Source of the DNA: an uncultured bacterium
GTDB taxonomy: Bacteria; Zixibacteria; MSB-5A5; GN15; FEB-12
Assembly (NCBI GenBank): GCA_965372795.1
Contig: CBDVDR010000007.1
Coordinates: forward strand, 1-64,000
Direction of reading: 5' to 3'
DNA: 64,000 nt
Shown: piece after piece, positions 33,900 through 54,357 of the stretch
Layout: every line of letters starts with the position of its first letter
Position numbering within the stretch: position 1 is the stretch's first letter
The notes under the pieces: model-generated
What the model was told of the DNA's origin: nothing
What the model saw: only the letters and a program-made list of their open reading frames with translations
Databases searched by the model: none
Made by a program: the position numbers and the translations under genes

Positions 33900-33972
33900 T
33901 CCCCTGTAGCTCAGTTGGTAGAGCAGCTGACTGTTAATCAGCGGGTCGCAAGTTCGAGTCTTGCCGGGGGAG
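33900..33972 (+). tRNA. tRNA-Asn (GTT), CCA not encoded
   Basis: TCCCCTG acceptor pairing with CGGGGGA; D-arm TAGCTCAGTTGGTAGAGC; anticodon arm GCTGA-CTGTTAA-TCAGC; T-arm GCAAG-TTCGAGT-CTTGC; upstream TTGACA at 33847. Confidence 0.97.
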
Positions 33973-35478
33973 CTTTGTTATACGATTTTGCGAACTCCCA
34001 CTAAACTCAGGTAATTCAAAGATATCCAATATAATTTTATCTTGATAAATAATCACATCTTTAAGAATACATTGGATAGCTTCAGCTTGGTCTTTTGGTC
34101 CCAAAGCTTCAAATGCAATGCTGAAATCCTGTAGACTCTTTCTAACTAAATCTGCATCGTATTCTTCAAAAGCTTGTTCATTGATTTTTCTAGTAATTTC
34201 TTCTAATTCAAAATTTAGAATTTTTAAATTCTTTTCTCTAAATTCAATTTCTTTTTCTAAACGATCTATACTAATTTTCCCAACACCAATGGCTTGAACA
34301 TATTTATCAATTTGAGCTTCTAATTCAGAAATTCTCAGTTTGATCTTTTTAGCTTCATCTTCCAAGGGACCAATTTGATTTTTTAAATCACCATTTAGCT
34401 TTTCAATTGATTTATTTAGATAGGTTTCATTTTGGGATAAATCATAAAGATCATTAATTACGATTTTTTCAATTTTATTCGCATTAAAACTCTTAATTTT
34501 ACATACTCGATTACTAAAATTCATCGTTTTAGTACAGCGATAATAAGGTATTCGATTTATTGAGTTATCCTTATTTCTTTTTTGAGTATAATGGGGTGTC
34601 ATAACAGAACCACAATCACTACATCTAATTAAACCTTTTAATAGGTAAACTTTTTCAATCCTTGAAGTAGGATGACTTCTTGTTGGGTGCATTAATTGAA
34701 TTCTCTTAAATAGAGTTTCATCAATTATTGCTTCGTGTTGCCCTTTATAAATCTTTCCCTTTGATCGAGTTTTTCCTATATACACAGGATTTCTTAAAAT
34801 ATGAGCTATTGCACTTTTACTCCATCTACCATTTGATCGTGGTAAATAACCATACTTTTCCAATTCTAAGCGTAAACTACTTAATGAAGGATTTATACCA
34901 AAGTTATTAAACATAAATTTAATAATAGGTTCTTCTTCTGGATTCGGTAGAAGCTTTTTATTTTCCCTCAAATATCCATAAGGAGGTATGCCACCATTCC
35001 ATAAACCTTTTTGTGCTCTCTGTTGCATCTTATCACGTGTTCGATCTGAAATCATTTCTCTTTCAAATTGAGCAAAATCTAAAAGTATATTCCGTAGCAA
35101 GCGACCAGTAGGATGATTAGTATCAATATTTTGTGTAATAGAAACGAAGTTTACATTATATTTATCAAATTCTTCCATTAGAGTATGGAAATCTTTAACT
35201 GATCGAGTCAATCTATCAATCTTATAAACTAAAACACAATTGATTTTTCCTTTTTGGAAATCTCTGATCATTTCTTGTAATGCAGGACGTTTAACAGAAT
35301 CACCAGAAAAACCACCTTCTACATATACACGATAAATCTCATAATTATCCTGACTTTTACAATATGCTTCAAGCTTTTCTTTCTGTGAATCTAGAGAGCT
35401 ATAATCATTCACCATTTGACTACGACTTGATACACGAGTATAAAGAGCACAAATTATTTTATTTTTTTTCTTATCCAT
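33934..35478 (-). CDS. Large serine recombinase (resolvase + recombinase + Zn-ribbon)
   Basis: LYTRVSS catalytic Ser, KRPALQ, KIDRLTRS, FAQFEREMISDR, PPYGY, ILRNPVYIG, LLKGLIRCSDCG...YYRC. The last codons overlap the tRNA antisense. Confidence 0.95.
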   Translation of the reverse strand: MDKKKNKIICALYTRVSSRSQMVNDYSSLDSQKEKLEAYCKSQDNYEIYRVYVEGGFSGDSVKRPALQEMIRDFQKGKINCVLVYKIDRLTRSVKDFHTLMEEFDKYNVNFVSITQNIDTNHPTGRLLRNILLDFAQFEREMISDRTRDKMQQRAQKGLWNGGIPPYGYLRENKKLLPNPEEEPIIKFMFNNFGINPSLSSLRLELEKYGYLPRSNGRWSKSAIAHILRNPVYIGKTRSKGKIYKGQHEAIIDETLFKRIQLMHPTRSHPTSRIEKVYLLKGLIRCSDCGSVMTPHYTQKRNKDNSINRIPYYRCTKTMNFSNRVCKIKSFNANKIEKIVINDLYDLSQNETYLNKSIEKLNGDLKNQIGPLEDEAKKIKLRISELEAQIDKYVQAIGVGKISIDRLEKEIEFREKNLKILNFELEEITRKINEQAFEEYDADLVRKSLQDFSIAFEALGPKDQAEAIQCILKDVIIYQDKIILDIFELPEFSGSSQNRITKLPRQDSNLRPAD

Positions 35479-36001
35479 TTACATTTTGTAATGGTTTTGA
35501 TCTTGTGATCCACCATTCCTTCAATTTTGAACCTAATATCAATAGTAAGGAACCACCGCCTAAAATCAAAAGGCTAAGATGCATTCCTACAATAGAAGGA
35601 TTTTCTTTTATGTAATTCTCTGCTTCTTTAGATCCGTGGCATTTTAATAAAAGAGAATAACTCAATATCTCTGCTTGAAATTCAGCTTTGGAAGTCTCTA
35701 TTTTATCAATTGAATCAAGGTGTATCATACAGTGTACAATTTCATGAAAAATTGTGTAATCTCTATGAAATTTAGATTTATTTGAATTTATAAAAATTGT
35801 ATTTCGCCCTTCTACAGTAATCGCTTCACCACTAAAATTTTCTGGAAACTTTGAAGATCTATTAATTGGGATATTCAGATGTTTTGCAAGTTTATAGGGA
35901 GATTTAAATGCTTCATTTGGTAGATTATCAAAAGAATCATATAATTTACTATAAGGTTCAAGCAATAAGTTTCGCCAAAAATTTTTAACCTTTTCAGTCA
36001 T
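35471..36001 (-). CDS. ImmA/IrrE-family metallopeptidase with C-terminal hydrophobic helix
   Basis: IFINSN....RDYTIFHEIVH (HExxH), EFQAE; adjacent to the Xre repressor. Confidence 0.8.
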   Translation of the reverse strand: MTEKVKNFWRNLLLEPYSKLYDSFDNLPNEAFKSPYKLAKHLNIPINRSSKFPENFSGEAITVEGRNTIFINSNKSKFHRDYTIFHEIVHCMIHLDSIDKIETSKAEFQAEILSYSLLLKCHGSKEAENYIKENPSIVGMHLSLLILGGGSLLLILGSKLKEWWITRSKPLQNVNG

Positions 36002-36357
36002 CTATTTTTTGCCTTCTTTTTCGCAATATCATTAACAACCTTTAGTACATCTTTAAGTTCTTTTTCAGAAAGAGTACCTGCAGCTCTAAATAACCTAGCC
36101 ATATTTGGCTTGTTATCTGAGAATTTTCCTGCTTCGGCAATAAGTTCATTAGAGTCAATATTTAGTACTTCCGCTATATCTCTAATTTTCTCATTTGAAG
36201 GTGGTTTCTGAATTCCCCGAAGTATCCTAGATAAATAACTAGGATTTATATTTGTTTCTGATGCTAACTTTCTAAGGGACATTCCTTGCTTATCCATCTC
36301 AGATTTTATTTTATCGCTAAAAAACTTACTTTGCTGTTTTTCAATTTTTTCACCCAT
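35998..36357 (-). CDS. Xre-family HTH repressor (ImmR-like)
   Basis: MSLRKLASETNINPSYLSRILRG HTH; start 36357 (MGEK) after GGAGG RBS. Confidence 0.88.
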   Translation of the reverse strand: MGEKIEKQQSKFFSDKIKSEMDKQGMSLRKLASETNINPSYLSRILRGIQKPPSNEKIRDIAEVLNIDSNELIAEAGKFSDNKPNMARLFRAAGTLSEKELKDVLKVVNDIAKKKAKNR

Positions 36358-36398
36358 TAAGGCAAATCCTCCATCAATTTTAATCAATATCAATAATG

Positions 36399-36493
36399 TA
36401 TCCCACATAGTCAACACTTTTTTTACTTTTTCTAAGAAATTATTTAAAATAGACAAAATATATGTTGACTATTTAGGATACGGTTAGTAACCT
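36399..36493. promoter_or_regulatory. Divergent promoters with inverted operator pair
   Basis: tatcccacatagtcaaca (36399-36416) and tgttgactatttaggata (36463-36480) are 16/18 inverted repeats, each containing TTGACT; rightward -10 TAACCT at 36488. Confidence 0.65.
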
Positions 36494-36499
36494 CTAGGC

Positions 36500-36736: not shown

Positions 36737-36753
36737 TTTTTTTAAGAAAGTAT

Positions 36754-37532: not shown

Positions 37533-37661
37533 CATGGGGGGCGTACGGTTTGCCCTAATGAGAGCAGCTTCAAGGCTGCTCTCTGACCGGTGCCCAAGCC
37601 GCCGGGGTCCTATTGGCGAATGCCAATGGGCGGCGGCAACAAAGCGATTGCCCGAAGGGCA
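37507..37661 (+). other. GC-rich multi-hairpin region (candidate single-strand origin or structured RNA)
   Basis: Stems at 37507-37538, 37539-37554, 37560-37583, 37598-37637 and 37649-37661 in an AT-rich element. Confidence 0.6.
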
Positions 37662-37738
37662 TACTGGCTTCTTGGTTGCTCTTGTTTCTGGCGTCATTTG
37701 TTGTCTATCTGTCAACTCGCAATTTTGGAGGAATTTAT

Positions 37739-38458
37739 ATGGCTTCTTCACTTGATATTAATAAGCATAATCGAAACAAGTTCTGCGGAAGATATTCACT
37801 AAAAGGATATTTAGAACAAAATGGAGAAAAGAAAATTAGATACGCAAGGCTCGGATGTAAAGGATGGAACTGTCAAATATGTGGACCTAGAAAAGCTTCT
37901 AAGTATCGTCATTCAATCAAAGAACAAGCTCTAAAGTTAAACTTAGATAGATTTCTTACATTAACTTTGGATCCCAAAAAATGCAAACCACATAATTCCT
38001 TGCCACATATAAAAAAGAGTTGGGCTAAATTCAGAATTTCTTTAAAAAGAAAATATGGTCATAGCATTTCATTTATCTGTATTGTGGAATTCCAAAAAAA
38101 TGGTTATGCACACTTACATATTCTTGTTGATCGTTTTATACCTCAAAAATGGATATCACACGCTTGGAATTCTGTAGGTGGAGGAAAGATCGCATTTATT
38201 GAGAGAGTTGAATTAAAGAGTATTGCTTATTATATAACTAAATATTTAACTAAAGATACAAACTTCAATAATTCGGGGAAGCGATACCGAAAATGCACAA
38301 CATCTAGAAATATTAAACTAAATTATCATAAGAAATCAGGGAAATGGGTAGTTATGACAGTTCCTATTGAAGAAATACATAATTCTTATAAGAAACAACA
38401 ATCGAAAGAACATAGAGATATGTCTGGGATGTTACATTGGTTTGAGATTTCAGTATGA
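37739..38458 (+). CDS. HUH rolling-circle replication initiator
   Basis: Motif I FLTLT, motif II EFQKNGYAHLHILV, motif III YYITKYLTK, N-terminal CKGWNCQIC; GGAGG RBS before ATG 37739. Confidence 0.88.
   Translation: MASSLDINKHNRNKFCGRYSLKGYLEQNGEKKIRYARLGCKGWNCQICGPRKASKYRHSIKEQALKLNLDRFLTLTLDPKKCKPHNSLPHIKKSWAKFRISLKRKYGHSISFICIVEFQKNGYAHLHILVDRFIPQKWISHAWNSVGGGKIAFIERVELKSIAYYITKYLTKDTNFNNSGKRYRKCTTSRNIKLNYHKKSGKWVVMTVPIEEIHNSYKKQQSKEHRDMSGMLHWFEISV
37750..37764 (+). other. Putative double-strand origin / nick site
   Basis: ACTTGATATTAATAA matches the phiX174 origin (CAACTTG^ATATTAATAAC) and contains the CTTGATA nick consensus. Confidence 0.7.
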
Positions 38459-38479
38459 ATTGGTATGTATTTAATTACC

Positions 38480-38508
38480 TTGACTTAAAAAGGATCAATA
38501 ATTACATT
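38480..38508 (+). promoter_or_regulatory. Sigma70-like promoter for cargo operon
   Basis: TTGACT-17 nt-TACATT upstream of the GAGGGG RBS. Confidence 0.55.
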
Positions 38509-38555
38509 TATACAAACAGGACTAATTCATCTAGAAAAAACTAGAGGGGAATCAC

Positions 38556-39101: not shown

Positions 39102-39107
39102 TAAGTT

Positions 39108-39584
39108 ATGATTAAAAGACAAGTTTTTATAAGCTTCCATCATAAAAATGAGCAATCTGTAGTAGACGATTTTGTGAATGCATTCAGCACTTACTATGAC
39201 GTTTTTACTGACAGATCTCTTGATAGAGCTGCAGATAGCGATGATACTGAATACTTAAATCAAGTATGTAGAGATGCCATAGAAGGTACAAGTATAACAA
39301 TCGTAATAATAGGTACTGAAACTGGTAAAAGAAAATTTGTAGACTGGGAAATTAAACATACTTTATTAAAAAAACATGGACTTCTAGCTATATTTCGACC
39401 AAACCTAGAAGATCACCTTACAAATTTGCCGAATCGCTTAATTGACAACATAAATTCAGGATATTCAAATTGGTATAAATACCCATCTTCTCCAGAAGAT
39501 CTGCGATTAATGTTAGAAAAAGCATACAATATAAACAAAGCTTTGATAGACAATAGTAGAGAAAAAATGAAAAGAAACCTATAA
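39108..39584 (+). CDS. ThsB-like TIR domain protein (MTH538/DUF1863)
   Basis: RQVFISFHH, TSITIVIIGTET..RKFVDWEI, GLLAI, LPNRL.DN. Confidence 0.85.
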   Translation: MIKRQVFISFHHKNEQSVVDDFVNAFSTYYDVFTDRSLDRAADSDDTEYLNQVCRDAIEGTSITIVIIGTETGKRKFVDWEIKHTLLKKHGLLAIFRPNLEDHLTNLPNRLIDNINSGYSNWYKYPSSPEDLRLMLEKAYNINKALIDNSREKMKRNL

Positions 39585-39616
39585 TGTTCTTAACGATAAG
39601 CCATTTGAGTATCTAA

Positions 39617-40261
39617 ATGAATATAAATAATTCGTATAAGTGGGATATTTTTATTAGTTACCATAGATTACCTGCAATTGAAAAATGGTTAAAAGAAATA
39701 TTAATTCCTTTACTCGAACTTCATCTACCAAGTTCATTGGGAAGAGAAGCAGATATATTCTGTGATGATAATATAAAAACTGGTAATCATTGGCCAAATG
39801 AATTGAGCGATGCATTAGCATATTCTAAAGTATTGTTACCAATTTGGACTGTACTTTATTTTCATCGAGAATGGTGTTTAAAAGAGTGGTTAACTATGGT
39901 CAACAGAGAATCTAAATTAAATAGTCTTTCAAGGGAAGAGCAATTTACATTAATCAAGCCGATAAGACTACTTGATGGAAATAAATATCCTATATTTGCT
40001 CAAAATACACAAAGTTTAACCTGTACTAATTATTTTACAACTTCTGAATGTTATAAACAAACACTCGAGTATATAAACCTAGAGAAAAAGATAACAGATT
40101 GGTGTAATAATGACTTAGGACAATCGATAGTTACTGCACCACCTTGTCAAGAATTTTGGTTAAATGAAGAATTTTCTAGAAATTCAATAAGAGCTTTAGA
40201 ATCACAAAGTGAAATGCAACCTATTGATTTAAACACAACACCAAGATTAGGTAATGAATGA
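39617..40261 (+). CDS. TIR domain protein (TIR_2/FxsC-like)
   Basis: WDIFISY, IFCD..IKTG..WP..L..AL..SKVL, YF..EWC..EW. Confidence 0.85.
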   Translation: MNINNSYKWDIFISYHRLPAIEKWLKEILIPLLELHLPSSLGREADIFCDDNIKTGNHWPNELSDALAYSKVLLPIWTVLYFHREWCLKEWLTMVNRESKLNSLSREEQFTLIKPIRLLDGNKYPIFAQNTQSLTCTNYFTTSECYKQTLEYINLEKKITDWCNNDLGQSIVTAPPCQEFWLNEEFSRNSIRALESQSEMQPIDLNTTPRLGNE

Positions 40262-42747
40262 GTAAAATAATTACATTCTATTCTTACAAAGGTGGAGTTG
40301 GTCGTTCCATGGCATTAGCAAACGTTGCGGTAAAACTATCAGGATTGGGACATAAAACTCTTATAATAGATTGGGATCTTGAAGCTCCAGGATTGGAATT
40401 CTATTTTAAAGAATATTTGGATTTAAGTAAAATAAAAACTAAACCAGGCATTATTGATATTTTAAAAGGAGATCATTCTACAAATTTAAAATCAACTAAA
40501 TGGACAGATTGCATCTCAACAATTAGTATTGATAATGCAACTCCATCCATACATTTTATATCATCAGGTAGCAACAAAGATAATTATTATAAAAAAGTAC
40601 AAGAATTTGATTTAGATAGTTTCTTTAATAAGAATAAAGGACAATCCCTGTTATACGAATTAAGAAATGAATGGTTAAATACTTATGACTTTATCCTCAT
40701 CGATAGTCGTACTGGCATTACAGACTATGGAGGAATTTGTACTATTCTTTTACCAGATGTAAACATACTATTTGTGACAACTAACGATCAAAGTCTTACA
40801 GGTAGTGAATATGTATTTGAAAAAGCGCATCAAATTAGAAAACAACTCCCTTACGATTATGAAAACATTATTTTTGTTCCAATATTAAGTAGATATGATG
40901 CTACTGAAGAATATCAAATTTCACAAGATTGGATAAAAAAAATAGATAAATCATTGTCTAAACTTTATGAGAAATGGACACCAAGGAACATTATAACAGA
41001 AGAACTAATTCAACAAACAAGCATTCCTTATATCCCATATTTTAGTTACGGTGAAAGACTTGCAGTTTTAGAAGAAAGTTCATCAATGACTAGATCTTTA
41101 AGCAATGCATATGAGAACCTTTCAGCATTAATTGCAAATAATTTCCAATATCTTGATGATATGATAAATAATCGAAGAAGTTTTTTAGCAAGAGCTTCAA
41201 AAATAAAAAATAAAGATGACTTAAGATTGAGACACACTGTTCCGCTTGTAAATTCTCCAGATTTAATCCATTTAAATTATGATAATCATCAAAAATGGTT
41301 AAGTACAAATGGTTCTGCAGGAGATCAAATGGATATAAAAAACAAAGAATTTTTAAATTTAGAACTTTTTGATCTTAATTTAGGCAAGTCCGAATTCAAC
41401 ACTTCAACAATGAAGAACTCCAATTTCACTTTTATTGATTTTTCTCATTCATCTTATAGATATAGTAATTTTTCGGGATCCAAATTTACATCTTCAAACC
41501 TATCATCTATAGATGGTTTTAATGCAATCTATATTAATGTCATATTTGATGGTGTAAGCGCTACACTATCCGATTTGTCTACTAGCAATTTAACAGATGC
41601 TATAATTAAAAACTCTGATTTTTTTCAATCAAATTTAGATGATTGTAATATGCAAAATTCCAAACTTCAAAATTCAAACTTTGATCTTGCTAGTTTTAAA
41701 AATTCTGATTTGAACTCTTCGAATCTCGAGCATTCAAATTTTTATAGATCTAATTTTGCAAATGCAAACCTTAGATCATGCATTTGTTATGATGCAGATT
41801 TTAAAGGGGCTAACTTCAGTGATGCTAATCTAGCATATGCAAAGGGATTAAAAGAATCTCAACTAAAAATGACAATATTAGATTTTGCAAAATTACCTGA
41901 TCATATAAATTTTAGTGATTCACTAAATTCTTTTGGTAAAAATTTAAAAAGTGTACAGAGTTCATTTTGGATAACATCTATAATTGCACTTACTTATTTG
42001 TTTGCTCTTATAAATTACTTAACAATCGGTAACTCTAAAGAGTTTATTATTTTTTTACCAAATCTCCAAAATTTCGCCATTCCACAAATAATTGCAATTA
42101 TAATTTCCATGTACTAGTCACAAAGTTTATGGGATAAAATATCAAAATTACCATGTAGTTTTCCTGATGGTAAAACTCTTCATGAAAAAGGAGATTCTAT
42201 TTTTTTTGTAGGAAATATTTTTCCTACGCTCCAGAGAAATAACATAAGAGCTAATCCATTTAGGAGTATTCTATTCATAAGTTTGTATTGGGGATCTACA
42301 TCTATAATCTATGTTTCTGGTGCTTTTGTCATTTATACATATCCTAATTTTTATCCAGATACTAATTTCACTTTTTCCTTTATAGTTGCAATTTCATTAA
42401 GTTTAATAGGAATTTTATCATATTTTTATTCTAATATAAAGTTAGCTAAAAATAATAGACCAAGTTTTATTTGTTCTCACGAAGTAGCATTATTTAATTT
42501 GCCAAAAAAAATGTTTAAATATGAAATGTTAGATTTATTAGATAATTATGGAAGAATCTTAAGTTTAAGAAAAACAATTAGTATCAATGATGATATAGTG
42601 TGGAGTGTAAGGTTAGAGAGTAATTTTCAGGTACAAAAAGTGATAAAAAGTCTTGATCGTAGTAATTTTCATAATAAAGTGATAAGAGCTATTGGTATAC
42701 CGATTGGAGAGGAATTATCTAAAACTCTATATAATAGAGTCAAATAA
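40258..42747 (+). pseudogene. KGGVGR-variant ParA/MinD ATPase-pentapeptide repeat-TM-RRM-like protein with one in-frame TAG (42115-42117)
   Basis: FYSYKGGVGRS, DWDLEAPGL, YDFILIDSRTG, IPYIPYFSYGE; pentapeptide repeats. The frame stays open after the TAG and joins the 42283..42747 ORF. Confidence 0.8.
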
Positions 42748-43566: not shown

Positions 43567-43729
43567 CCTTATTTTTATAAGATTTAGCCTAATTTATTGA
43601 AAATATACTAAGAAGTCAATATAGTTACAATATAACAAATTACCTGAAGATAAGACCATTTTTGAATAACTTTATATCAAAAAAAAAAAATTAAATTTAA
43701 CTTATATAGATCGTTTTATAACGAATCTA

Positions 43730-43814
43730 ATAGTTCGCAATTCGTACAATACGGGGAGCTTAAGTTTTTCTACTCAACAACTTACTAAAATTCAATTTGT
43801 ACGGATTGCGAACT
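43730..43814. repeat. att-like junction 1 (arm-core-IHF-like box-inverted arm)
   Basis: agttcgcaattcgtacaa...ggggagctt...tcaacaacttac...ttgtacggattgcgaact (17/18 inverted repeat). Confidence 0.85.
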
Positions 43815-43915
43815 TATGTTATAATTGATGATCAAGTCTAATTATTGTATATTATATTTTTGAAATTGAATGATTGAAATGATAATTAGTTTTATGATTA
43901 ATTTATATCCATGAG

Positions 43916-44548: not shown

Positions 44549-44578
44549 TATTATTTATCTATTAACAGCTTGAACCTT

Positions 44579-44667
44579 ATAGTTCGCAATTCGTACAATA
44601 CGGGGAGCTTTATTAATTCTCTTTCATATCAACAACTTACAACATTACAGATTGTACCTTTTCGACT
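44579..44667. repeat. att-like junction 2
   Basis: 32 nt identical to 43730-43761, then tatcaacaacttac and a degenerate arm attgtaccttttcgact. Confidence 0.85.
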
Positions 44668-44754
44668 AATCAATTTCTAGAAAATCTGAAACTTATATAA
44701 TAATCTTATTTTGTAAGTAGGAACGAAAATTAATCTTCCATCTGTTAGAAATAA

Positions 44755-44982
44755 TTGTTTTTCCTGTAGTTTGTGAACTGGTTCATCTAGGAAGTAGTAT
44801 TCACCCTCGGTCGCTGCATCGAGCATCCCGATAATGTTAAGCTGGGCTGAATTTCCTGCACCCTAAGGTCCCATGACGGTGACGAAGTCACCATCGTAGA
44901 TTTCCAATTTAACATGCCTGAGAACGTATGTGTTCACGCCACCGTTCTTATAGCTCTAGGTTATGTTGTCAAGTCTGATCAT
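44755..44982 (-). pseudogene. Truncated ABC ATP-binding gene
   Basis: MIRLDNIT*SYKNGG...GDFVTVMGP*GAGNSAQLNIIGMLD...GEYYF: two TAG stops, degenerate Walker A, truncated near junction 2. Confidence 0.8.
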
Positions 44983-45094
44983 AATGTCAATATCCTTCGA
45001 AAGTAATTCTTTGTTCTATTCATGTCGTATCGCGTCAATCGGATTGGCGATTAACGCGACGTTATGGACAGTCGCCTAGTGTGCATAATTTTGT

Positions 45095-47470
45095 TTATTC
45101 AGAACGAAGAGCGTCCACAGGATTAGATCGCGCTGCCCGGAAAGCTTGCGAGCCGACCGTTACAGAAGCCACCATGAGCGCAATCAGAGTTGGTAGCAAA
45201 AACAGCCAGACGTTAAGTTCGATGCGGTAAGGGAATTGTTCCAACCAACCATTCAGCAGATACCACGCGATAGGCCAGGCAACCAAGCTGGATAAAGCCA
45301 CCAGAGTTATAAACTCCCGGGTCATCATCATGACCAACTGCTGGATAGAGGCACCAATCACTTTGCGAACGCCAATTTCCTTGGTTCGTCTCTCAGCCGC
45401 AAAAGCGGACAAACCCAAAAGACCCAGGCAGGCGATGAACACACCCAATGCGGAGAAGACGGAAAACAAATACATCAACTTGCGATAATCATCATAACGC
45501 TCGGAAATAAGGTTATCGAGATACTTCGCAACAGGTGCCTTTTCTGAGAATACTTCTTCGTACACCGAAGCAATTTGTGACTTCATTTGTGCTTGATTCT
45601 CGTCTGGCAATTCCAGGGCCAACACCCGCCCTATTGTATTTCGATGGAGAATCACTGTTGGCTGTATCTCGCTATTGAGAGGGTGCGCGTGAAAGTCCTT
45701 CACCACCCCAATCACAGTGAAGATTCTATCGGGTCTCATTAGCTGGAAACCAATCGGCTCCTTGATCCCCATTGTTTTAACCGCGGTTTCGTTGATCAAG
45801 ACCATGTTGGGGGTGTTTGAGTTTGCTTCGCTATCCCATGACTTGCCAGCAACGAGTTCTAATTTAAGCGTTTTGAAGTAATCGTTGTCTCCGGCAAGAA
45901 AATTAAACATTACTTTCTTGCCTTCGTCGTAGCTCTCAGGATGAAATGACAACAGGCTTGTCCTATTCTCGCCGGGGACCGCAGTGGCTATAGTAAGGTT
46001 TGACAGCCCAAGCCGGCTGAGGTCATTTTTGAACAGGACTTTTTTATCATTGGATGCTTTGTCGGGGAACTCATACAAAAGGATATTCTCGTGACTAAAC
46101 CCAAGGTCAGCCGCTCCGGCAAATTCAATCTGCTCGTTGATGCCAAAAGTGAGACACATGAGGATGATAGCACAGGTTGCCTGAAACGCAACCAATACAC
46201 GCCTTAGATTAAATCGACCGGTTGACGCGATAGCACTGTTTTTTAAAACCTCCTGTGGATGAAGTCGGGAAAGTACAATTGCCGGGTAACTTCCTGATAT
46301 CAGACCTACCAAAAGAATCAAACTCGGTCCGGCCAGCCAGACTATCGGACTTTCCATAAGACCGATTGAGAGAGGTTTGCCAGCATACTGTTCCATGGCT
46401 GGGATTGTTAATTCAAAAACCACCAATCCAGCCGCCATCGCTATAGTAACCATAATGACGGACTCAGCTAAAAATTGATGCGCCAACTGCCATCTTCCGG
46501 CACCAAACACTTTGCGAATCCCAACCTCTTTGGTTCGATGAGCCATACGAGCAGTAGTGAGATTGATATAGTTCATGCAGGCTATTACCAAAAGCAACAT
46601 GGCGATGCCTGAGAAAATATATATCGTCTCCATTGAACCCCTGGGATCAAGTTCGTTGCTTAGGTCTGGATTCAAGTAAATCGATAGCAAAGGTTGTAGT
46701 TCCAGTTTAAATTCATCAGCCTTGTCTCCCAGATGAACCGTAAGCAAATCCGGAATCTTAGCTTCAATAGATGCCAGATCGACGTCTTCAGACAAAAGCA
46801 AGTAGGTGTAAGCTTTACCCCACCAACCTTCCCAGGTGGTAAGATCCTCTCCCATAGTCTCAAGGGTTGCATAGGAAGCAAGGAAATTAGTTTTGAGCTG
46901 GGTGTTGTCCGGCATGTCACTCATTACGCCGGTAATAATCATTTCTATATCGTCATGAATTTTGACTGTTTGACCAATCGGATCACTGTTCGGGAAGAAG
47001 CTTTCACTGATACTCTGTGATATTATCAAGCTATTTGGGCTCAAGAGAGCGGTCGCTCGGTTTCCGTTTATGAGCGGAATAGAAAAGACCTCAAGCATTT
47101 CGGGATCGACCATCAGGAATTGAGTTTCTACAATAAACTTATCGTGTCCGAACTCTATTTTAACGTCCTTGTCCTGGTAAATTCTGGCCTGTTGTTCAAT
47201 TTCCGGCATAGTTTCTTTCAGGGCCGGTCCGGCTGGGTGCATGATATTGGCCGTTGAGATCATATCATCATCACGTTCCCAAAAGCAAACTACCCGGTAG
47301 ATATTATCGGCGTTCGGATAATGAGATTCGTAGCTATACTCGTATGAAACATACGCCAATATCAAAAGACAAGAACCCAAACCCAACGCGAGACCAAGGA
47401 TGTTGATACAAGTATAGAGCTTTTGTTTTCTTAGTGACCTCAAAGCGGTTCTCAGGTAGTTACGAATCAT
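45095..47470 (-). CDS. ABC transporter permease (duplicated MacB/FtsX type)
   Basis: NYLRTALRSL, IACMNYINL, KEVGIRKVFGA, RRTKEIGVRKVIGAS, NPVDALRSE. Confidence 0.93.
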   Translation of the reverse strand: MIRNYLRTALRSLRKQKLYTCINILGLALGLGSCLLILAYVSYEYSYESHYPNADNIYRVVCFWERDDDMISTANIMHPAGPALKETMPEIEQQARIYQDKDVKIEFGHDKFIVETQFLMVDPEMLEVFSIPLINGNRATALLSPNSLIISQSISESFFPNSDPIGQTVKIHDDIEMIITGVMSDMPDNTQLKTNFLASYATLETMGEDLTTWEGWWGKAYTYLLLSEDVDLASIEAKIPDLLTVHLGDKADEFKLELQPLLSIYLNPDLSNELDPRGSMETIYIFSGIAMLLLVIACMNYINLTTARMAHRTKEVGIRKVFGAGRWQLAHQFLAESVIMVTIAMAAGLVVFELTIPAMEQYAGKPLSIGLMESPIVWLAGPSLILLVGLISGSYPAIVLSRLHPQEVLKNSAIASTGRFNLRRVLVAFQATCAIILMCLTFGINEQIEFAGAADLGFSHENILLYEFPDKASNDKKVLFKNDLSRLGLSNLTIATAVPGENRTSLLSFHPESYDEGKKVMFNFLAGDNDYFKTLKLELVAGKSWDSEANSNTPNMVLINETAVKTMGIKEPIGFQLMRPDRIFTVIGVVKDFHAHPLNSEIQPTVILHRNTIGRVLALELPDENQAQMKSQIASVYEEVFSEKAPVAKYLDNLISERYDDYRKLMYLFSVFSALGVFIACLGLLGLSAFAAERRTKEIGVRKVIGASIQQLVMMMTREFITLVALSSLVAWPIAWYLLNGWLEQFPYRIELNVWLFLLPTLIALMVASVTVGSQAFRAARSNPVDALRSE

Positions 47471-47494
47471 GAATGTACACTCACTTTCTAAAAC

Positions 47495-47662
47495 CTATTC
47501 ATATTTTAGTGATTCAATCGGATTAGACGAAGCTGTCTTTATCGCTTGATAGCTATCAACAAAGCGAGCAATGCCGTTAGCCAGCCCGACTATATTGAGT
47601 AGAGTAATACCGTCCTGACGACGGGTCGATCTCAACGCGATCTTGAGAAAGTTCTTAAGCAT
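47495..47662 (-). pseudogene. 55-aa in-frame N/C-terminal fusion remnant of an ABC permease
   Basis: MLKNFLKIALRSTRRQDGITLLNIVGLANGIARFVDSYQAIKTASSNPIESLKYE*. Confidence 0.75.
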
Positions 47663-48341
47663 GACGAGTCTTTATGTCTTCTGTTACAACAGCGCCATCG
47701 AAAAGGTTGATGGTACGACTGCAGTAGTCAGCGAATGCCTGAGAATGAGTGACCATTACGATCGTAGTGCCTTCTTCATTGAGTTTCGTCAGGCAGGTCA
47801 TCACATCCTGTCCGTGGGCTGAGTCAAGATTGCCGGTTGGTTCATCGGCGAGAATCAGTCTTGGATTGGCAACAACTGCTCTTGCAACAGCCACACGTTG
47901 TTGTTGACCACCTGATAACTGTTGTGGGAAATGCTTTGAACGGGCAATGATCTCAAACTCTTTAAGTGCCTTGTTGACGCGTGTTCTTCTCTCAGATGCG
48001 GCTATCCCGAGATAGAGAAGAGGCAGTTCGACATTCTCAAAGATGTTCAGTTCATCAATCAGGTTAAAATTCTGAAAGACAAACCCGATGTTGTTCTTGC
48101 GAAGACTGGCTCTTTGACGTTCGGTATATTTGGAGACTTCAGTTCCGAGCAAATGATATTCTCCCCCGGTTGGGTTATCCAGAAGTCCAAGAACATTCAG
48201 CAGAGTTGATTTGCCACAACCAGATGGTCCCATAATTCCGACAAACTCACCTTCTGCGATGTGGATTCCAATATCGTTTAGTGCCGTTGTCTCGATGTCT
48301 TCGGTGCGGTAAGTTTTTTGCAGGTTGACGGTACGAATCAT
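47655..48341 (-). CDS. ABC transporter ATP-binding protein (MacB/LolD-like)
   Basis: GPSGCGKST, LSGGQQQRV, ILADEPTGNLD; start MIRTVNL after GGAG. Confidence 0.95.
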   Translation of the reverse strand: MIRTVNLQKTYRTEDIETTALNDIGIHIAEGEFVGIMGPSGCGKSTLLNVLGLLDNPTGGEYHLLGTEVSKYTERQRASLRKNNIGFVFQNFNLIDELNIFENVELPLLYLGIAASERRTRVNKALKEFEIIARSKHFPQQLSGGQQQRVAVARAVVANPRLILADEPTGNLDSAHGQDVMTCLTKLNEEGTTIVMVTHSQAFADYCSRTINLFDGAVVTEDIKTRHA

Positions 48342-48378
48342 GGTTATTACTCCTTTTAACATTGTCATTATATTTTTC

Positions 48379-49647
48379 CTATTTAAATACGAGTTGGTCA
48401 ATTTCGCCAAAAGTTTCATAGGAGGAAGTAACCACTTTTTCCCCCGGTTTAAGACCTTCAAGTACTTCGTAGTAGATTGAATTTGAACGCCCCAATCGGA
48501 TAACACGTTTTTTGGCCAGATTGTCTGTCTCATCTACAACATAAACCCATTGACCACCCGTGCTTTGCCAGAAAGCTCCACGCTTAATCAGAATTGCCTC
48601 GGAGGAGCCACCCAGATTAAGGCGGATACGAAGTGTTTGGCCACGTCGGATTCCTTTTGGAGCACTTCCGATAAATTGCAGGTCCACTTCAAAGCGACTG
48701 TTAACAACCTCAGGGTAAATTTTCTCAACCAGCAGTTCAATGTCTTCATCATCAAAAGTAGAGGTTGCTTTTTGTCCGACCTGTACTCTTGAGAGATAAT
48801 GCTGGTCCACCTGGACTCTCGCTTTGAAACCTACCGGGATATCTATTCTCCCCAACTGTTCACCACGATTCTTAGTTTGTCCAATTTCTGCATTCAACGA
48901 AGTCAACTGCCCGTCTATCGGGGCTCGTAACGTAAGATTATCGAGTTTTTGTTTTACCATATCAAAATTGTCTTCCATGCGTGTCAATCCCTCTTGAAGT
49001 TGACCAACCTGAGTCTCCCTGAAAACAGAATCTTGTCGAGCATTTTCAACTGTTAACTCAAACTTAGCGGCGTAGTACTCAAATGTCTCTTTGGCTTCAT
49101 CGAACATTCTCACCGAGATTAACTCCTTTGTCAGAAGCGCTCGAAATTCTTCGTAAGTACGCTTTTTCTGAGATAATTGGTACTTGAGATCAAGCAGTTG
49201 TTCGGCCATTCGAAGCCGATTCTGCTGCATAGCTAAACGAGTGTTTCGTAAGTTATTCGATTGCTGAAAAAGCTCTGCTTCACGAAACATGATATCCAAA
49301 AGAAGATTAGTATTAGCCAGTCGCAGAATAGGGTCGCCTTTGTTGACATAAGAACCTGCCTCAACAAATACCGAGTCCACCTGTCCACCTTCAGTTGCAT
49401 CCAGAAATATCGTCCGAAGAGGAATCACTGTGCCTGTTTCAGGAATGAACTCCTGAAATTCACCTACGGTTACATCTGAAATAGAAATACGTTCGATATC
49501 GACACTGAGTCTGGAACTGTGATCTCCAAAAATTAGATTGTATAGAATTAAAATAGTCGCCAGTCCACCCACTGATAAGTAAGCAATCATTTTGATTGTC
49601 CAGAATTTCCGTTCGATCAGTCTATCCATACGAGAGATGTCACTCAT
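48379..49647 (-). CDS. Efflux membrane-fusion (HlyD/RND adaptor) protein
   Basis: N-terminal TM, EGGQV lipoyl half, coiled coil, RAPIDGQL, EVLEGLKPGEKVV. Confidence 0.9.
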   Translation of the reverse strand: MSDISRMDRLIERKFWTIKMIAYLSVGGLATILILYNLIFGDHSSRLSVDIERISISDVTVGEFQEFIPETGTVIPLRTIFLDATEGGQVDSVFVEAGSYVNKGDPILRLANTNLLLDIMFREAELFQQSNNLRNTRLAMQQNRLRMAEQLLDLKYQLSQKKRTYEEFRALLTKELISVRMFDEAKETFEYYAAKFELTVENARQDSVFRETQVGQLQEGLTRMEDNFDMVKQKLDNLTLRAPIDGQLTSLNAEIGQTKNRGEQLGRIDIPVGFKARVQVDQHYLSRVQVGQKATSTFDDEDIELLVEKIYPEVVNSRFEVDLQFIGSAPKGIRRGQTLRIRLNLGGSSEAILIKRGAFWQSTGGQWVYVVDETDNLAKKRVIRLGRSNSIYYEVLEGLKPGEKVVTSSYETFGEIDQLVFK

Positions 49648-49724
49648 ACACTATTTCTCACAATCTATGTTGCAGTTCAATATTTTTAAGACGGCCAAAT
49701 AGCGTCTCGGTTGCTAAAAGACAT

Positions 49725-49833
49725 TACAATAATCGTGCCAGTTCAAGTAAGTCGTTGTTATACAACAAAACTAATGGTATTGCGGTGGGGTTTTACTGCC
49801 CGCTTATGGAGGTTTGCTGTACGAATGCGTACA
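49725..49833 (-). promoter_or_regulatory. Sigma54 promoter, IHF-like site and TGT-N10-ACA enhancer
   Basis: Minus-strand CTGGCAC-gatta-TTGTA (49725-49741); TAACAAcgacTTA (49748-49760); palindrome TGTACGaatgCGTACA (49818-49833). Confidence 0.75.
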
Positions 49834-50006
49834 CTAAATCCCTTGCCCCAAAGCAACTATCGGATTACTTTGTATGTAAGTCACTGTTAATCAACGATCT
49901 GAATTGTTTTCTCGTGATGGTATGTTTTCTGCTTTCATCTTTACATTGAAAGCAACAACGATTAGAAATGCACAAGAAGTGAAAGTGACAATGGAGTGTG
50001 TGACGA

Positions 50007-51392
50007 ATGAGCGAATTGAATTTTAGTTCAAGCCGAATCCTTGTAGTCGATGACGACCCTGATGTGCTTTTGGCGGCACGACTTCTGCTTAAGCAGCATG
50101 TCGCCGAGGTAGTCACCGAACCTGATCCCAATCGAATCCAAGAACATCTTGGCACGAGCGATTTTGATATCGTGATGTTGGATATGAATTTTACACGGGA
50201 TCAAACGAGCGGTGAAGAGGGGCTCCATTGGCTCAAGCAGATTTTGAAATGGGATCCCGAGATGGTCGTAGTAATGATCACTGCATACGGTGACGCCGAA
50301 ATTGCCGTTCACACGATCAAGAGCGGAGCGACTGATTTTGTTCTAAAGCCGTGGCAAAATGAAAAGCTGCTTGCCACGATGTTCTCCTCTCTGAAGCTTC
50401 ACCACTCACAAAAAGAGGTTGAGAATCTTAAGCAGTCTCGACGACAGTTAAGTGCCGACATGGATCAGCCGTTTGGGGATTTTATTGGTTCAAGTAAGGC
50501 AATGAAAGAGGTGATCGCCACTATCGCAAAGGTGGCGGTAACCGACGCGAACGTTTTGATAACAGGGGAGAACGGGACTGGTAAAGAATTGGCCGCAAGG
50601 GCAGTTTACCGACGATCGCTTCGTGCTGGTGAAGTATTTGTCAAAGTTGATATGGGATCAATAGCCGAGACGCTGTTTGAATCGGAGCTGTTTGGTCATG
50701 TAAAGGGAGCTTTCACCGATGCGAGAGAAGATCGCGCAGGCAGATTTGAGATTGCATCAGGGGGGACGCTTTTCCTCGACGAAATCGGAAATACTCCGAT
50801 CACACTACAGGCTAAACTATTGACCGTTTTGCAAAGTCGCCAGGTTACCAGAGTAGGTTCAAATAGTACAACACCAATTGATATTAGACTAATATCAGCC
50901 TCGAATATGCCGCTCGAGGAATTGGTCGAAAATAAGCTCTTTCGCCAGGATTTGCTCTATCGAATCAATACCATAGAGATTGTTTTACCGCCACTCAGAG
51001 AGAGGATTGATGATATTGATGATCTGGCAGAGTATTATCTCAAGATGTATGCGGGGAAATATAAGAAGAGCGTGAATGGTATCACGCCTGCTGGAATTAA
51101 TAAGCTCAAATGCCAACCCTGGCGCGGCAACATAAGAGAGCTTCAGCATACGCTCGAACGAGCGGTTATAATGAGCGAGTCGGATCAGTTGACACCGGAT
51201 GATTTCCCGTTTAGTCAAAGTGGTGATTTGGCTGACTCAAAACTTATGGCGAGTCATAATTTGGAAAAGATTGAGCGGACTATAATTGTTCGCGTACTCT
51301 CTTTGAATGACAACAATATCAGCCATGCTGCCGAAGTATTGGGACTCACACGCACATCACTTTATCGTCGTATGCAAAAACATGGTCTTTAA
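50007..51392 (+). CDS. NtrC-family sigma54 response regulator
   Basis: Receiver (VDDD, LDMNF), GENGTGKE, ELFGHVKGAFTDA, FRQDLLYR, Fis-type HTH. Confidence 0.95.
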   Translation: MSELNFSSSRILVVDDDPDVLLAARLLLKQHVAEVVTEPDPNRIQEHLGTSDFDIVMLDMNFTRDQTSGEEGLHWLKQILKWDPEMVVVMITAYGDAEIAVHTIKSGATDFVLKPWQNEKLLATMFSSLKLHHSQKEVENLKQSRRQLSADMDQPFGDFIGSSKAMKEVIATIAKVAVTDANVLITGENGTGKELAARAVYRRSLRAGEVFVKVDMGSIAETLFESELFGHVKGAFTDAREDRAGRFEIASGGTLFLDEIGNTPITLQAKLLTVLQSRQVTRVGSNSTTPIDIRLISASNMPLEELVENKLFRQDLLYRINTIEIVLPPLRERIDDIDDLAEYYLKMYAGKYKKSVNGITPAGINKLKCQPWRGNIRELQHTLERAVIMSESDQLTPDDFPFSQSGDLADSKLMASHNLEKIERTIIVRVLSLNDNNISHAAEVLGLTRTSLYRRMQKHGL

Positions 51393-52728
51393 GCATTTTA
51401 GAATACAAATAATCTCGCGCGTTCTCATTTTATGTGTGACTATTTTGGCTGCAGCCTGGCTCCTGAGTGCAACTGAAAAGTATGCCACGACCGGGATGGT
51501 TATCCTATTGTTCATTCTACAGGTGATCTTTCTCATTCGATTTGTTGAAAAAACAAATCACACGATGGCAGAGTTCCTGCAAGCGATTGAATACGACGAT
51601 TTTACTCAGTCTTTCGGGAATGTTGCAAGCGGCAAATCGTTCGACGAGTTGAATCAGGCCTTTGTTAAAGTTTCTGCGAATTTCCGAGAGGTTCGTCTGG
51701 GGAGGGAGGAAAATTACAGATACTTGCAGACGGTCGTTCAGCATGTTGGAGTCGGCATGGTAGCATTTCAGGAGAGCGGAGAGGTCGAACTTTTTAACTC
51801 TACCGCCAAGAAGATACTGCAATTGGCTTCATTGAAGAATATCAATGACCTTAAAATGAAAAGTCCGGAACTTTTAGAACGTATTAAATTTCTCAATCCG
51901 GGAGAGCGCGATCTGGTTCGAGTCACAATTGATAAAAACTTGGTACAACTGTCTCTTTTTATGACTATCCTTAGGATGCGCAATCGCAAAATAACTCTGG
52001 TGTCGTTTCAGAATATCTCCGCTGAGCTTAACGAAAAAGAGATGCAGGCATGGCAGAATCTTATCAGGGTGTTCACTCACGAAATAAAAAACTCTTTGAC
52101 GCCGATCAGTTCTTTGGCTGGAACTATAGAAACTCTCTTAGTTCCAATTACGTCGCAACTAAACGTGAAGAATCGGGAGAGCATTACTGATATCTCCGAG
52201 GCTCTTACGACAATCAAGAGTCGTTCAGAAGGCTTACATGAGTTTATTAATGCTTATCGTGATCTGACAAACCTTCCCCAACCTGTGTTTGAATCGTTCA
52301 AGGTGACCTCTATGTTTGAGCGGGTTGGACAGCTTGTGAAAGATCAAATTCAATCTGGGGGGATTAATTACTGTGTAGAACTATCGAATCAAACCCTCTC
52401 GGTTACAGCAGACAGCAAAATGATCGAACAGGTGTTGATCAATCTGATCCTTAACTCAATCCAGGCTTTGAATGGATGTGAAAAACCGAAATTAAAAGTG
52501 TGTGGGTTTGTTGATTATCAGAATCGAGTAACAATTACTGTCGAAGACAATGGCCCGGGGATTGCGAATACGGCGATTGACAAAATATTCGTACCGTTTT
52601 TTACTACTAAGAAAACCGGCTCAGGAATTGGCCTAAGTCTGTCAAGGCAAATCATGCGTCTTCACAAAGGTGAACTAACTGTTTCGTCTGAACCAGATAA
52701 ACGCACAATCTTAACCATGCGCTTCTAA
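51382..52728 (+). CDS. Sensor histidine kinase (NtrY-like)
   Basis: Start MVFKHF overlaps the regulator stop; two TMs, PAS-like, HEIKNSLTPI, DNGPGI, FFTTK..GSGIGL. Confidence 0.92.
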   Translation: MVFKHFRIQIISRVLILCVTILAAAWLLSATEKYATTGMVILLFILQVIFLIRFVEKTNHTMAEFLQAIEYDDFTQSFGNVASGKSFDELNQAFVKVSANFREVRLGREENYRYLQTVVQHVGVGMVAFQESGEVELFNSTAKKILQLASLKNINDLKMKSPELLERIKFLNPGERDLVRVTIDKNLVQLSLFMTILRMRNRKITLVSFQNISAELNEKEMQAWQNLIRVFTHEIKNSLTPISSLAGTIETLLVPITSQLNVKNRESITDISEALTTIKSRSEGLHEFINAYRDLTNLPQPVFESFKVTSMFERVGQLVKDQIQSGGINYCVELSNQTLSVTADSKMIEQVLINLILNSIQALNGCEKPKLKVCGFVDYQNRVTITVEDNGPGIANTAIDKIFVPFFTTKKTGSGIGLSLSRQIMRLHKGELTVSSEPDKRTILTMRF

Positions 52729-53109
52729 GATGACCATTTGAGCCACAATTGATTATCTGCTTAGGAATTCTCTGCCAGCATAATCACGACAAGATGCAAT
52801 AAAATCTACCATAAAGCCTGTGCTATTTAAATACCGTTTCAACATTCTTGAATTCAGTTTCCATCTGACATAAAGAAAAATGTGTCTTAGATTTCAACTA
52901 CACTTGTCCGGATTGTTTGAAGACATTCAATTCTTTATTCCTAAATTTCATTATATCAACTATGCTTATGCCGCAGTTCTAAATTAGTCCACGATGGCCC
53001 GCCATTATATTTATTATTTCCGAATAGTGGTTCAAATCCTTTTGCTTGCCATATGTGTCCCTAATTTAAAAGGATATTGAAGTAATAACATTGTTAGAAT
53101 ACATCAAAA

Positions 53110-53195
53110 AGTTGCGAAATTCGTCTAATTGGGGGAGCTTTATAATCATAAAAATTTGAACCACTTACACAATAGCTTTATCGCACATTCGAACT
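53110..53195. repeat. att-like junction 3
   Basis: agttgcgaaattcgtctaatt-gggggagcttt...tgaaccacttac...cacattcgaact. Confidence 0.75.
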
Positions 53196-53373
53196 TTAAG
53201 CCACTCTTTCTCGTTATTCCACTATCAGTTAAGGAAAGTTGTATAGCTTTTTAACAGCTTGTACTTTTACTCTTTAATCCTGTTCAATAAATAGACTTGA
53301 CAAGTCTACGCATTTTTTTAATTTAACTTTGTACTTATAAAATACTACTCAATTTTTTATAAATCGAAAACAG

Positions 53374-54159
53374 ATGAAAGGTTTTAATATGAAGTACTTA
53401 TTTATTCTTGTTGTTCTTTGCCTGCTGATAATTGGCTGTTCTGATAATCCCGTCAAAAGCAGTAACGGTTTTATTTCCGTAGAATCCTTTGATGCTCCTG
53501 CTCCGGAAGGCATTGAGCATTTATATTTACATGTTCTTGAAGTATCAACTCATCATTCAGATGACGGTTGGATAGTTTTATCGGAACCTGATACGGTCAT
53601 CGATTATATGGAATTGATAAACGGTATAACTGTTTTGTTAGCCGATAGCGTTTCTCTCCCTGTTGGTGACTACGAGCAAATGAGACTGTTGTTGTCTGAC
53701 TCCAATGAAATTGTTATTGAAGGCACAACTTATGACTTAACTACGCCAAGTGCGCAACAATCCGGGATTAAACTCAATCTGAATTTTTCTGTTGAAGAGA
53801 ACCAACTGATAGAAATCTATGTTGATTTTGATATTTCAAAATCAGTTATCAGTGCCTCATCAAAGTATATACTCACTCCGACATTCCGTGCTTTCAAACA
53901 AATTTTATCTGGCACTATTGCCGGAACAGTCGTTGATGCTCTTGGCGACCCGCTTGAAAATATAACGATTGACGTTGCTGGAGTAGAATATGCAACATCA
54001 ACAATTACTGATGCTGAAGGCAATTATCTTTTGATACTTCCTGAAGATACCTATGATATTACTGCAACAGCTGAAAATCTGACAGCTAATAAGACTTATA
54101 CCGGCGTAGAGTTAAATCCTCTTGATGAATTGACAGGATTTGATTTTATAATGGAATAA
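53374..54159 (+). CDS. DUF4382 lipoprotein with carboxypeptidase-regulatory-like domain (sole gene of segment D)
   Basis: IIGC lipobox, DAP, LP.G.Y.Q.RL, TPSAQQSGIKL, DFD..KSV, GTIAGTV. Confidence 0.85.
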   Translation: MKGFNMKYLFILVVLCLLIIGCSDNPVKSSNGFISVESFDAPAPEGIEHLYLHVLEVSTHHSDDGWIVLSEPDTVIDYMELINGITVLLADSVSLPVGDYEQMRLLLSDSNEIVIEGTTYDLTTPSAQQSGIKLNLNFSVEENQLIEIYVDFDISKSVISASSKYILTPTFRAFKQILSGTIAGTVVDALGDPLENITIDVAGVEYATSTITDAEGNYLLILPEDTYDITATAENLTANKTYTGVELNPLDELTGFDFIME

Positions 54160-54177
54160 TGATAAAAATAATAGATC

Positions 54178-54206
54178 AAACCGCCTGATTTTCAGGCGGT
54201 TTTTTT
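54178..54206 (+). terminator. Intrinsic terminator
   Basis: aaaccgcctga-tttt-caggcggttttttt. Confidence 0.85.
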
Positions 54207-54325
54207 GTCAATTAATATAAAAGCTAAACTCTTTGATTGTTGATCAGGTTACCTATAAGAGAAGAGCAAACTTCATCCACAATTTCTTAGATTTTCTCAA
54301 AAAAACTGCTGATCGTTGCTCAACC

Positions 54326-54357
54326 AGTTACAAAACTCGTCCAATTGGGGGAGCTTT
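54326..54357. repeat. att-like junction 4 (probable outer attR)
   Basis: agttacaaaactcgtccaatt-gggggagcttt, followed by a small hairpin and T-tract and no IHF-like box. Confidence 0.75.

Follow-up and report, generated by a model that had tools for sequence, protein, structure and literature searches.

A large serine recombinase at a Zixibacteria tRNA-Asn gene that appears to span its own attachment site, upstream of candidate attachment-site scars

When the gene of a recombinase runs across the site at which the enzyme acts, are the alternative protein ends that result working parts of the enzyme, or do they mainly reflect the DNA site beneath them? This question is raised by a 64,000-nucleotide stretch of DNA from an uncultured bacterium of the Zixibacteria lineage (assembly GCA_965372795.1, contig CBDVDR010000007.1, positions 1 to 64,000 of the forward strand; hereafter, the window), in which the gene for a large serine recombinase (LSR) terminates inside a tRNA-Asn gene, and four sites farther along would each supply it with a different in-frame tail. 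The interpretation that we favor, and to which we assign a probability of roughly three in four, is that a low-GC LSR element of approximately 10 kb occupies the 3′ end of tRNA-Asn with its attP in the last codons of the LSR gene, that the downstream sites are scars made of P arms, and that the tails are conserved mainly because they overlie the attachment (att) site.

The tRNA-Asn(GTT) gene is intact (33900..33973, plus strand; called by ARAGORN, and matched by Rfam RF00005 at 70.3 bits), and its 3′ half forms the B arm of attL. On the minus strand, the open reading frame (ORF) for the 514-residue LSR (33934..35478) crosses the att core and terminates within the tRNA gene, overlapping it by 40 nt; those last 40 nt are antisense tRNA, as had been reported in an earlier note made from the sequence alone. 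The translation ends in ITKLPRQDSNLRPAD, and the TAA stop (33934-33936) is read from the strand complementary to U35, U36, and A37 in the anticodon loop. The tail of the integrated form therefore reads RQDSNLRPAD followed by TAA (33934..33966, minus strand), antisense first to the T arm, then to the variable region, and finally to the 3′ side of the anticodon arm, with the stop supplied by the Asn anticodon loop only 10 codons past the core. No stop inside the element interrupts the ORF before it crosses the crossover core at attL, as would be expected of a gene that spans attP. Membership among the LSRs is indicated by the domain order resolvase, recombinase, zinc ribbon (Pfam PF00239 Resolvase, 9.3e-42, residues 11-159; PF07508 Recombinase, 5.1e-16, residues 180-262; PF13408 Zn_ribbon_recom, 2.2e-14, residues 279-344), and the coiled-coil insertion of the zinc-ribbon domain appears in the AlphaFold2 (AF2) model as long antiparallel helices at residues 351-399 and 404-436, as it also does in a homologue, P0018. 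Among relatives of solved structure, the closest over its full length is the SPbeta integrase 9dxh (1.7e-15, residues 32-478).

The shared att core, GGGGAGCTT (33967..33975, the minus strand of which encodes K-L-P), has five exact copies in the window, starting at 33967, 43753, 44602, 53132, and 54348, all on the plus strand and none on the minus strand; the chance expectation for a 9-mer on both strands of 64 kb is approximately 0.5 copies. Across the 3.35-Mb genome, an extended core pattern recovers the four downstream sites (three exactly, and 54336-54356 with one mismatch) and, beyond these, only two places, each with two mismatches. At all four downstream sites, which we term attR-type, the adjoining arm continues the LSR ORF in frame to a stop, and the tails are exactly those listed in the earlier note, three of the four stopping at the same codon. 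Site 1 (43702..43761, minus strand; tail KLPVLYELRTIRFVIKRSI) is the candidate right end of the resident 9.8-kb element, and site 2 (44551..44610, minus strand; tail KLPVLYELRTIRFKLLIDK) is a near copy of it (88% identity over 49 nt) at which the low-GC island, 10.6 kb long, terminates. Site 3 (53066..53140, minus strand; tail KLPQLDEFRNFLMYSNNVITSISF) carries a P arm of a second lineage, to which site 4 (54297..54356, minus strand; tail KLPQLDEFCNWLSNDQQFF) also belongs, with 84% identity between the two over 38 nt; tails resembling that of site 3 are present in the homologues P0035 and P0011. Within the tail of site 4, a terminator-like hairpin and T run can be seen on the minus strand (54327-54309) in the direction in which the LSR is read, and in a circle this hairpin would come after the integrase gene.

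The opposite half of the site is the P′ arm, TGTTATACGATTTTGCGAACT (33976..33996), which also encodes the conserved ...SSQNRIT... of the LSR. Taken against the 30 nt to the right of the attL core, the 30 nt to the left of the cores ending at 43761 and 44610 score significantly as inverted repeats (z 4.7 and 4.3; 3 and 5 of 2000 shuffles, respectively, reach the score), and the same test against the resident P′ gives z -0.7 and -0.3 at the cores ending at 53140 and 54356. By this measure, sites 1 and 2 alone are cognate to the P′ arm of the resident LSR. Joining the P arm of either one through the core to P′ yields a predicted quasi-palindromic attP of approximately 52 bp, the center of which we place at the GA at 33970-33971 (GGGG[GA]GC), based on the symmetry of P and P′ and on a quasi-palindromic empty site in a genome of the same genus (G001). 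By eye, GCGAAC in the predicted P arm sits 5 nt farther from the core than TCGAAC in the predicted tRNA arm; a distal motif placed 5 bp farther out in attP than in attB is given as a property of serine integrases in the available text of a recent report (10.1101/2025.05.02.651858). The same-genus genome shares the PDZ gene and the tRNA-Asn with the window and lacks the element; the end of its tRNA is followed by TTTGTTAGACG, resembling TTTGTTATACG of the window P′, and then by a hairpin and hydrogenase genes, while the inner motif of its B′ arm, TGTTAGACG, resembles TGTTATACG of the window P′. Its sequence matches what is expected of an unoccupied attB of the window LSR. In the window, the probable original B′ flank of the tRNA (54357..54390, plus strand), a short hairpin with a T run, resembles by eye the B′ of that empty site; the terminator scan made no call for the plus-strand hairpin to the right of 54357.

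A comparison of the C-termini of homologues, proposed in the earlier note as a check, indicates how general this arrangement is. More than 4000 LSR homologues are found at E<=1e-20, and we classified the tails of the best 120 (52-60% identity). About 102 of these 120 end in antisense-tRNA tails of the form …WLPGQDSN… (DSN tails; 100 by regular expression, less P0004, which is actually P-type, plus three missed rows judged DSN by eye), with WLPGLDSN followed directly by a stop accounting for 49. Tails of the kind found at the downstream sites of the window (P-type) are present in seven, such as P0018 (WLPVLYELRTLNF) and P0035 (WLPQVDDFRTFL); a further eight stop within one codon of the core, and three are truncated or unclear. 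Among 80 metagenome loci, 35 have a readable LSR end, which lies in an ARAGORN-called tRNA-Asn in 17 cases and in tRNA-Gln in one, the others being nine DSN tails at contig ends or beside tRNA fragments and eight that are P-type, short, or other. Four of these loci (L057, L059, L060, and L062) show a core copy with a P arm, and thus an attR, 7-9 kb upstream of the LSR end, their P arms reading LYPLRTIQF, LYPSRTLQF, or LYPCRTLEF; further attR-type sites occur in L058 and in L072, which has two, 2.1 kb apart. The P arm extends the ORF to an in-frame stop in L057, L060, L062, L058, and L072 and leaves it open across the 30 codons shown in L059; the tails of relatives run from 12 to at least 29 residues past LP. 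A profile search reached more distant homologues, and of its 149 cluster representatives 12 were flagged for ends of the WLP...DSN type, while some others have different ends that look antisense-tRNA-like by eye. On this comparative evidence, the attP-spanning layout is a conserved trait of the whole clade.

The layout also reaches beyond the clade: In L057, L059, and L050, the sequence immediately outside attR holds another LSR with no more than 24% identity, and in L057 its ORF (P0121, 2771-4429) reads across the shared core into the P arm of its neighbor, which means that distant LSR clades have the layout in common. The L057-type arrangement suggests two different tRNA-Asn-targeting elements in tandem. 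Another kind of stacking is seen in L053 (4069-4455) and L054, where the LSR abuts a tRNA 3′ fragment of approximately 30 nt and a complete tRNA-Asn lies 312 bp beyond. The window LSR was found in no other of the 284 same-phylum genomes searched at E<=1e-80, and viral contigs contain relatives at <=42% identity only, outside its clade. A scan of genome contigs with the single LSR protein returned one irrelevant locus, a region search with the P0018 tail gave 10 matches and no new P tails, and a looser search for attR in 18 further loci found none.

These observations can be assembled into the following scheme. The LSR would insert a 10-kb, low-GC integrative element, loaded with an XRE regulator, an ImmA-like protease, the LSR itself, a rolling-circle replication initiator (Rep), and TIR-type cargo, at the extreme 3′ end of tRNA-Asn. 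With attP lying within the last LSR codons, the P′ half-site would give ...SSQNRIT and the core KLP, and the remainder of the protein would come from whichever arm is joined: antisense tRNA in the chromosomal form, adding 10 residues up to the anticodon-loop TAA, and P in the presumed excised circle, adding 16 or more. Since the crossover would fall within the last codons, the integrated and excised forms would have to differ at their C-termini, and to this extent the proposal that excision swaps the integrase tail stands. Each of the four downstream tails would be a P arm, the distal half of attP, that stayed behind at the right end of a segment as one segment was stacked upon another, in a manner resembling the accretion of islands at tRNA and tmRNA genes; the two ending at 53140 and 54356 would be remnants of a related lineage, its integrase since lost. 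The conservation over approximately 10 codons of the tails would mainly reflect the att half-site, which repeats P′ in inverted form and mimics the T arm of the tRNA; protein-level constraint may add to it, and a regulatory role for the tail swap is possible.

The composition of the region fits tandem accretion, in that five cores of the same orientation past one tRNA bound accessory segments of differing GC content, some of them without an integrase. The cores divide 20.4 kb into four segments: the 9.8-kb element and, at 43762..54356, three further segments of 849 bp (GC 0.26, one ORF), 8.5 kb (GC 0.43), and 1.2 kb (GC 0.35, with a DUF4382 gene), none of which contains an integrase. GC content is 0.30 at 33976-43761 and 0.26 from 43761 to 44610, with flanks at 0.38 and 0.41, and the low-GC island thus extends over 33976-44610. 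The 8.5-kb segment carries MacB/FtsX-HlyD ABC export genes and an NtrC-type two-component pair; its permease occurs in 4 of 25 relatives, at <=43% identity, and is absent from the same-genus genome. We infer that each segment arrived separately. The earlier note had suggested that the array stores two classes of tail, an idea that loses its footing here: The sites look like scars of two element lineages, the first pair alone matching the resident P′, and we see no evidence that tails are kept in the array for use.

How much of the tail conservation calls for an explanation at the level of the protein? The conservation spans approximately 10 codons, largely coincident with the att half-site, and the tails of the window cannot by themselves separate the two levels. 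Over codons 1-10, sites 43761 and 44610 differ by two synonymous and no nonsynonymous changes (7 synonymous and 23 nonsynonymous sites), and sites 53140 and 54356 by three synonymous and five nonsynonymous changes (4 and 26 sites, respectively); such differences, in which the earlier note had seen protein-level constraint, are too few to provide a usable test. Nor does the shared stop codon carry the weight placed on it, as the local stop frequency of 0.088 per codon would lead two independent tails to share their stop with p of about 0.046, and tail lengths vary widely in relatives. Several features point to the DNA. In the subgroup comprising the window, L058, and L072, even the wobble bases of TTG TAC GAn TTG CGA are kept (permutation p=0.26), which as a pattern of bases is a DNA-level signature, and periodicity is absent from the second tail class (p=0.82). 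Where the L-Y and R-T codons are conserved, the DNA carries the motifs CTnTAy and CGnAC, which are common, in another frame, to P′ and to the T arm of the tRNA. At the other half of the site, synonymous divergence among the LSR genes of L057, L059, L060, and L062 is 0.00-0.19 over the final 15 codons and 0.00-0.42 over the 15 before them; from approximately 45 codons upstream of the 3′ end it is mostly 0.3-1.0, with two windows at 0.15-0.24. These values indicate that the P′ arm is frozen at the DNA level. At approximately 90 nt (the last 30 codons), the stretch of low divergence extends beyond the length of an att half-site, a possible sign that something else constrains it as well, for example a terminator or antisense pairing to the tRNA. 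Comparison of these sequences suggests that the att half-site explains most of the tail conservation, and that an added protein-level constraint is possible.

A number of observations sit less comfortably with this account and must be counted against it. The P arms of L057, L059, L060, and L062 vary at 8/9 wobble positions and at 4/18 other positions (Fisher p=0.0016), with an in-frame proportion of synonymous differences (pS) of 0.62-1.0, a proportion of nonsynonymous differences (pN) of 0.14-0.26, and pN/pS of 0.16-0.38; of the 12 pair-by-frame comparisons in the other two frames, 11 have pN above pS, and the 400 nt that follow deeper in the four elements show no detectable similarity. A pure DNA-site model does not predict such a wobble bias. 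Furthermore, conservation (I/L-x-F, then x-L-P in four tails) reaches beyond the 26-bp half-site. Past the core at three internal joints of the array (43762-43816, 44611-44668, and 53141-53196), a stretch of approximately 36 nt contains a shared motif, either CAACAACTTAC or GAACCACTTAC, and leads into a P′-like arm (for example TGTACGGATTGCGAACT at 43800-43816, past the core ending at 43761), so that the P arm and the P′-like arm form a long inverted repeat with a spacer of approximately 50 nt. This layout is not predicted by a simple stacking model, and the right sides of the joints have no significant similarity to the 3′ end of the resident LSR gene (z about 0). An empty site for the right flank of this genome itself was not found (DUF4153 homologues are 37-60% identical, and 0 of 14 loci have an adjoining tRNA-Asn). 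In public reads, represented by marine-metagenome contigs (shares 0.11 and 0.05), no excised circle or empty-site junction was seen; the same contigs provide only fragments and one 62-nt contig spanning attL.

The codon-position signal in the four relatives is an argument for a different view, that of the earlier note, in which the tail swap is a working sensor of state: A selected free-form tail would be needed for integration or would tune it, and the antisense-tRNA tail would alter activity, partner binding, or stability. There is a logic to this, the free form being the one that must integrate, and amino acids are indeed kept across subgroups with different codons (Leu as TTG, CTG, or CTT; Arg as CGA, CGT, CGG, or CGC, and as AGA in L029). 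An ORF on the opposite strand was considered as the cause of the period-3 pattern and rejected, as the frame sharing the wobble positions has stops, by eye, in L059 and L060. According to the sources as far as available, related effects are on record: In myxophage Mx8, int acquires a new 3′ end upon integration, with a change in the specificity of the integrase (PMC6070905); in phage BPs, a C-terminal change upon integration controls protein stability (PMC4557955); and the extreme C-terminus of the phiC31 integrase (D590-592) contacts the directionality factor (10.1101/2025.05.02.651858). Nevertheless, the signal comes from four related sequences, and 9 of the 14 invariant P-arm positions are palindromic with P′; once these are removed, the comparison becomes 8/9 versus 4/9, with p=0.066. 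The window subgroup and the second tail class lack it, as described above, and neither tail length nor distal sequence is conserved. The claim of protein-level constraint thus survives in part, for the wobble bias of those relatives, and fails to extend to the subgroup to which the window belongs.

Predicted structure does not strengthen the case for a sensor. The AF2 models of P0018, a protein with a natural P tail, and of the window LSR have mean predicted local distance difference test (pLDDT) scores of 81.9 and 79.8, the confident fold in both ends at a beta hairpin at approximately residues 470-486, and pLDDT falls below 50 at residues 504-525 of P0018 and at 490-498 and 507-514 of the window LSR. 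As modeled, neither tail, nor the P′-encoded stretch, would adopt a confident fold in the monomer, although with an alignment that is shallow in the P-tail columns this is weak evidence. Degradation tags of the ssrA kind end in -AA; the P tails of the window end in ...KRSI, ...LIDK, ...SISF, and ...QQFF. We consider the sensor an unlikely explanation for this locus. Its clade-wide form, in which crossover rewrites the enzyme and a selected free tail (L-Y/D-x-x-R-T-I/L-x-F) is exchanged with the antisense-tRNA tail so as to tune direction, partner binding, or stability, would provide a counterpart to IntP/IntX of Mx8 and could partly replace a separate directionality factor; we hold this form to be doubtful.

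The joints invite yet another reading, in which a different short repeat, regulatory or structural, was copied to the four downstream positions and shares the core by coincidence. Three of the four have the P′-like inverted arm approximately 36 nt past the core, giving long inverted repeats capable of forming hairpins, and the element encodes a rolling-circle Rep, for which hairpins could matter. Against this, the sites lie solely downstream of tRNA-Asn, in one orientation, and nowhere else in the genome; two of them are significant inverted repeats of the resident P′ arm, related elements in other genomes have equivalent sites at their distal ends, and Rfam finds no RNA family at any of them. 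Coincidental sharing of the core is thus highly improbable, and P-arm scars remain our preferred explanation.

With regard to known systems, the window LSR shares with SPbeta SprA/YokA, A118/LI, TP901-1, and phiC31 the domain order of resolvase, recombinase, and zinc ribbon with coiled coil, as well as short quasi-palindromic att arms; we know of no description of the genes of such canonical phage-type large serine integrases as spanning attP. The layout itself is not new, being in print for DsiB (2011) and for Mx8. As described in the portions available of McMurdie et al. 2011 (PMC3146451), DsiB of Dehalococcoides is an LSR that lies beside attL and reads toward a tRNA-like gene, dsiB overlapping attL, and its authors proposed that full function is possibly attained on the circle only; the ssrA islands of those genomes are tandem, bounded by direct repeats of the gene 3′ end, and in some cases without an integrase. 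The target there is the tmRNA gene (ssrA), in contrast to tRNA-Asn here, and DsiB is partnered by a second, small recombinase, DsiA, of which the window element has no equivalent. The likeness is one of layout; in the window the stop comes from the anticodon loop, 10 codons past the core. In Mx8 (Tojo 1996 and Magrini 1999, as relayed in part by PMC6070905 and PMC4383910), attP lies inside int, integration provides a new 3′ end, and the changed protein is active with altered properties; Int belongs to the tyrosine recombinases, the chemistry and site architecture of which are unrelated. In mycobacteriophage BPs, as the accessible account has it (PMC4557955), attP lies inside a gene, integration alters the C-terminus of the encoded protein, and this change acts as a stability switch, but the gene is that of the repressor and not the integrase, and the free form ends in an ssrA-like degradation tag, which is absent from all four window tails. 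In the literature on serine integrases at tRNA genes or spanning attP, supplements aside, we found a single case at a tRNA, that of a phage serine integrase at tRNA-Met (PMC6536676), and no description of the present tRNA-Asn clade; the main text of the Durrant preprint makes no mention of tRNA.

In the remainder of the resident element, an ImmA/IrrE-like M78 protease and an XRE-type helix-turn-helix regulator (35471..36456, minus strand; Pfam, PHROGs) have ORFs that overlap end to end with the LSR ORF in an apparent operon. All three genes (33934-36456) read toward the tRNA, in an arrangement that resembles immR-immA-int of ICEBs1, here with a serine in place of a tyrosine integrase. The element also contains two SpoVG-like ORFs and the rolling-circle replication initiator (37613..38458, plus strand; PF23343, 2.3e-15; phrog_3419, 4.3e-16). 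Between the SpoVG-like genes and Rep, the AT-rich element has a locally GC-richer stretch (37464-37755), in which both strands carry long, overlapping ORFs; Rfam at the gathering threshold reports nothing in it. The cargo (39108..42117, plus strand; Pfam, PADLOC) comprises a ThsB-like TIR protein (PADLOC ThsB, 1.9e-14; PDC-M50B, 2.5e-16), a second TIR protein (TIR_2), and a ParA-like P-loop protein with pentapeptide repeats (PDC-M28B, 9.9e-27). By these matches the cargo resembles an anti-phage defence set; a ThsA partner was not seen.

For the annotation of this family, these results mean that the database proteins of the LSR clade mostly carry junk antisense-tRNA tails in place of the tail of the form that integrates. 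The clade also adds many tRNA-targeting serine integrases to a habit long credited almost only to tyrosine integrases. Serine integrases are valued in genome engineering for their one-directionality, and how that direction is set is an active question; a clade in which the tail of the enzyme would be rewritten by its own reaction offers a natural test of C-terminal feedback on direction or stability.

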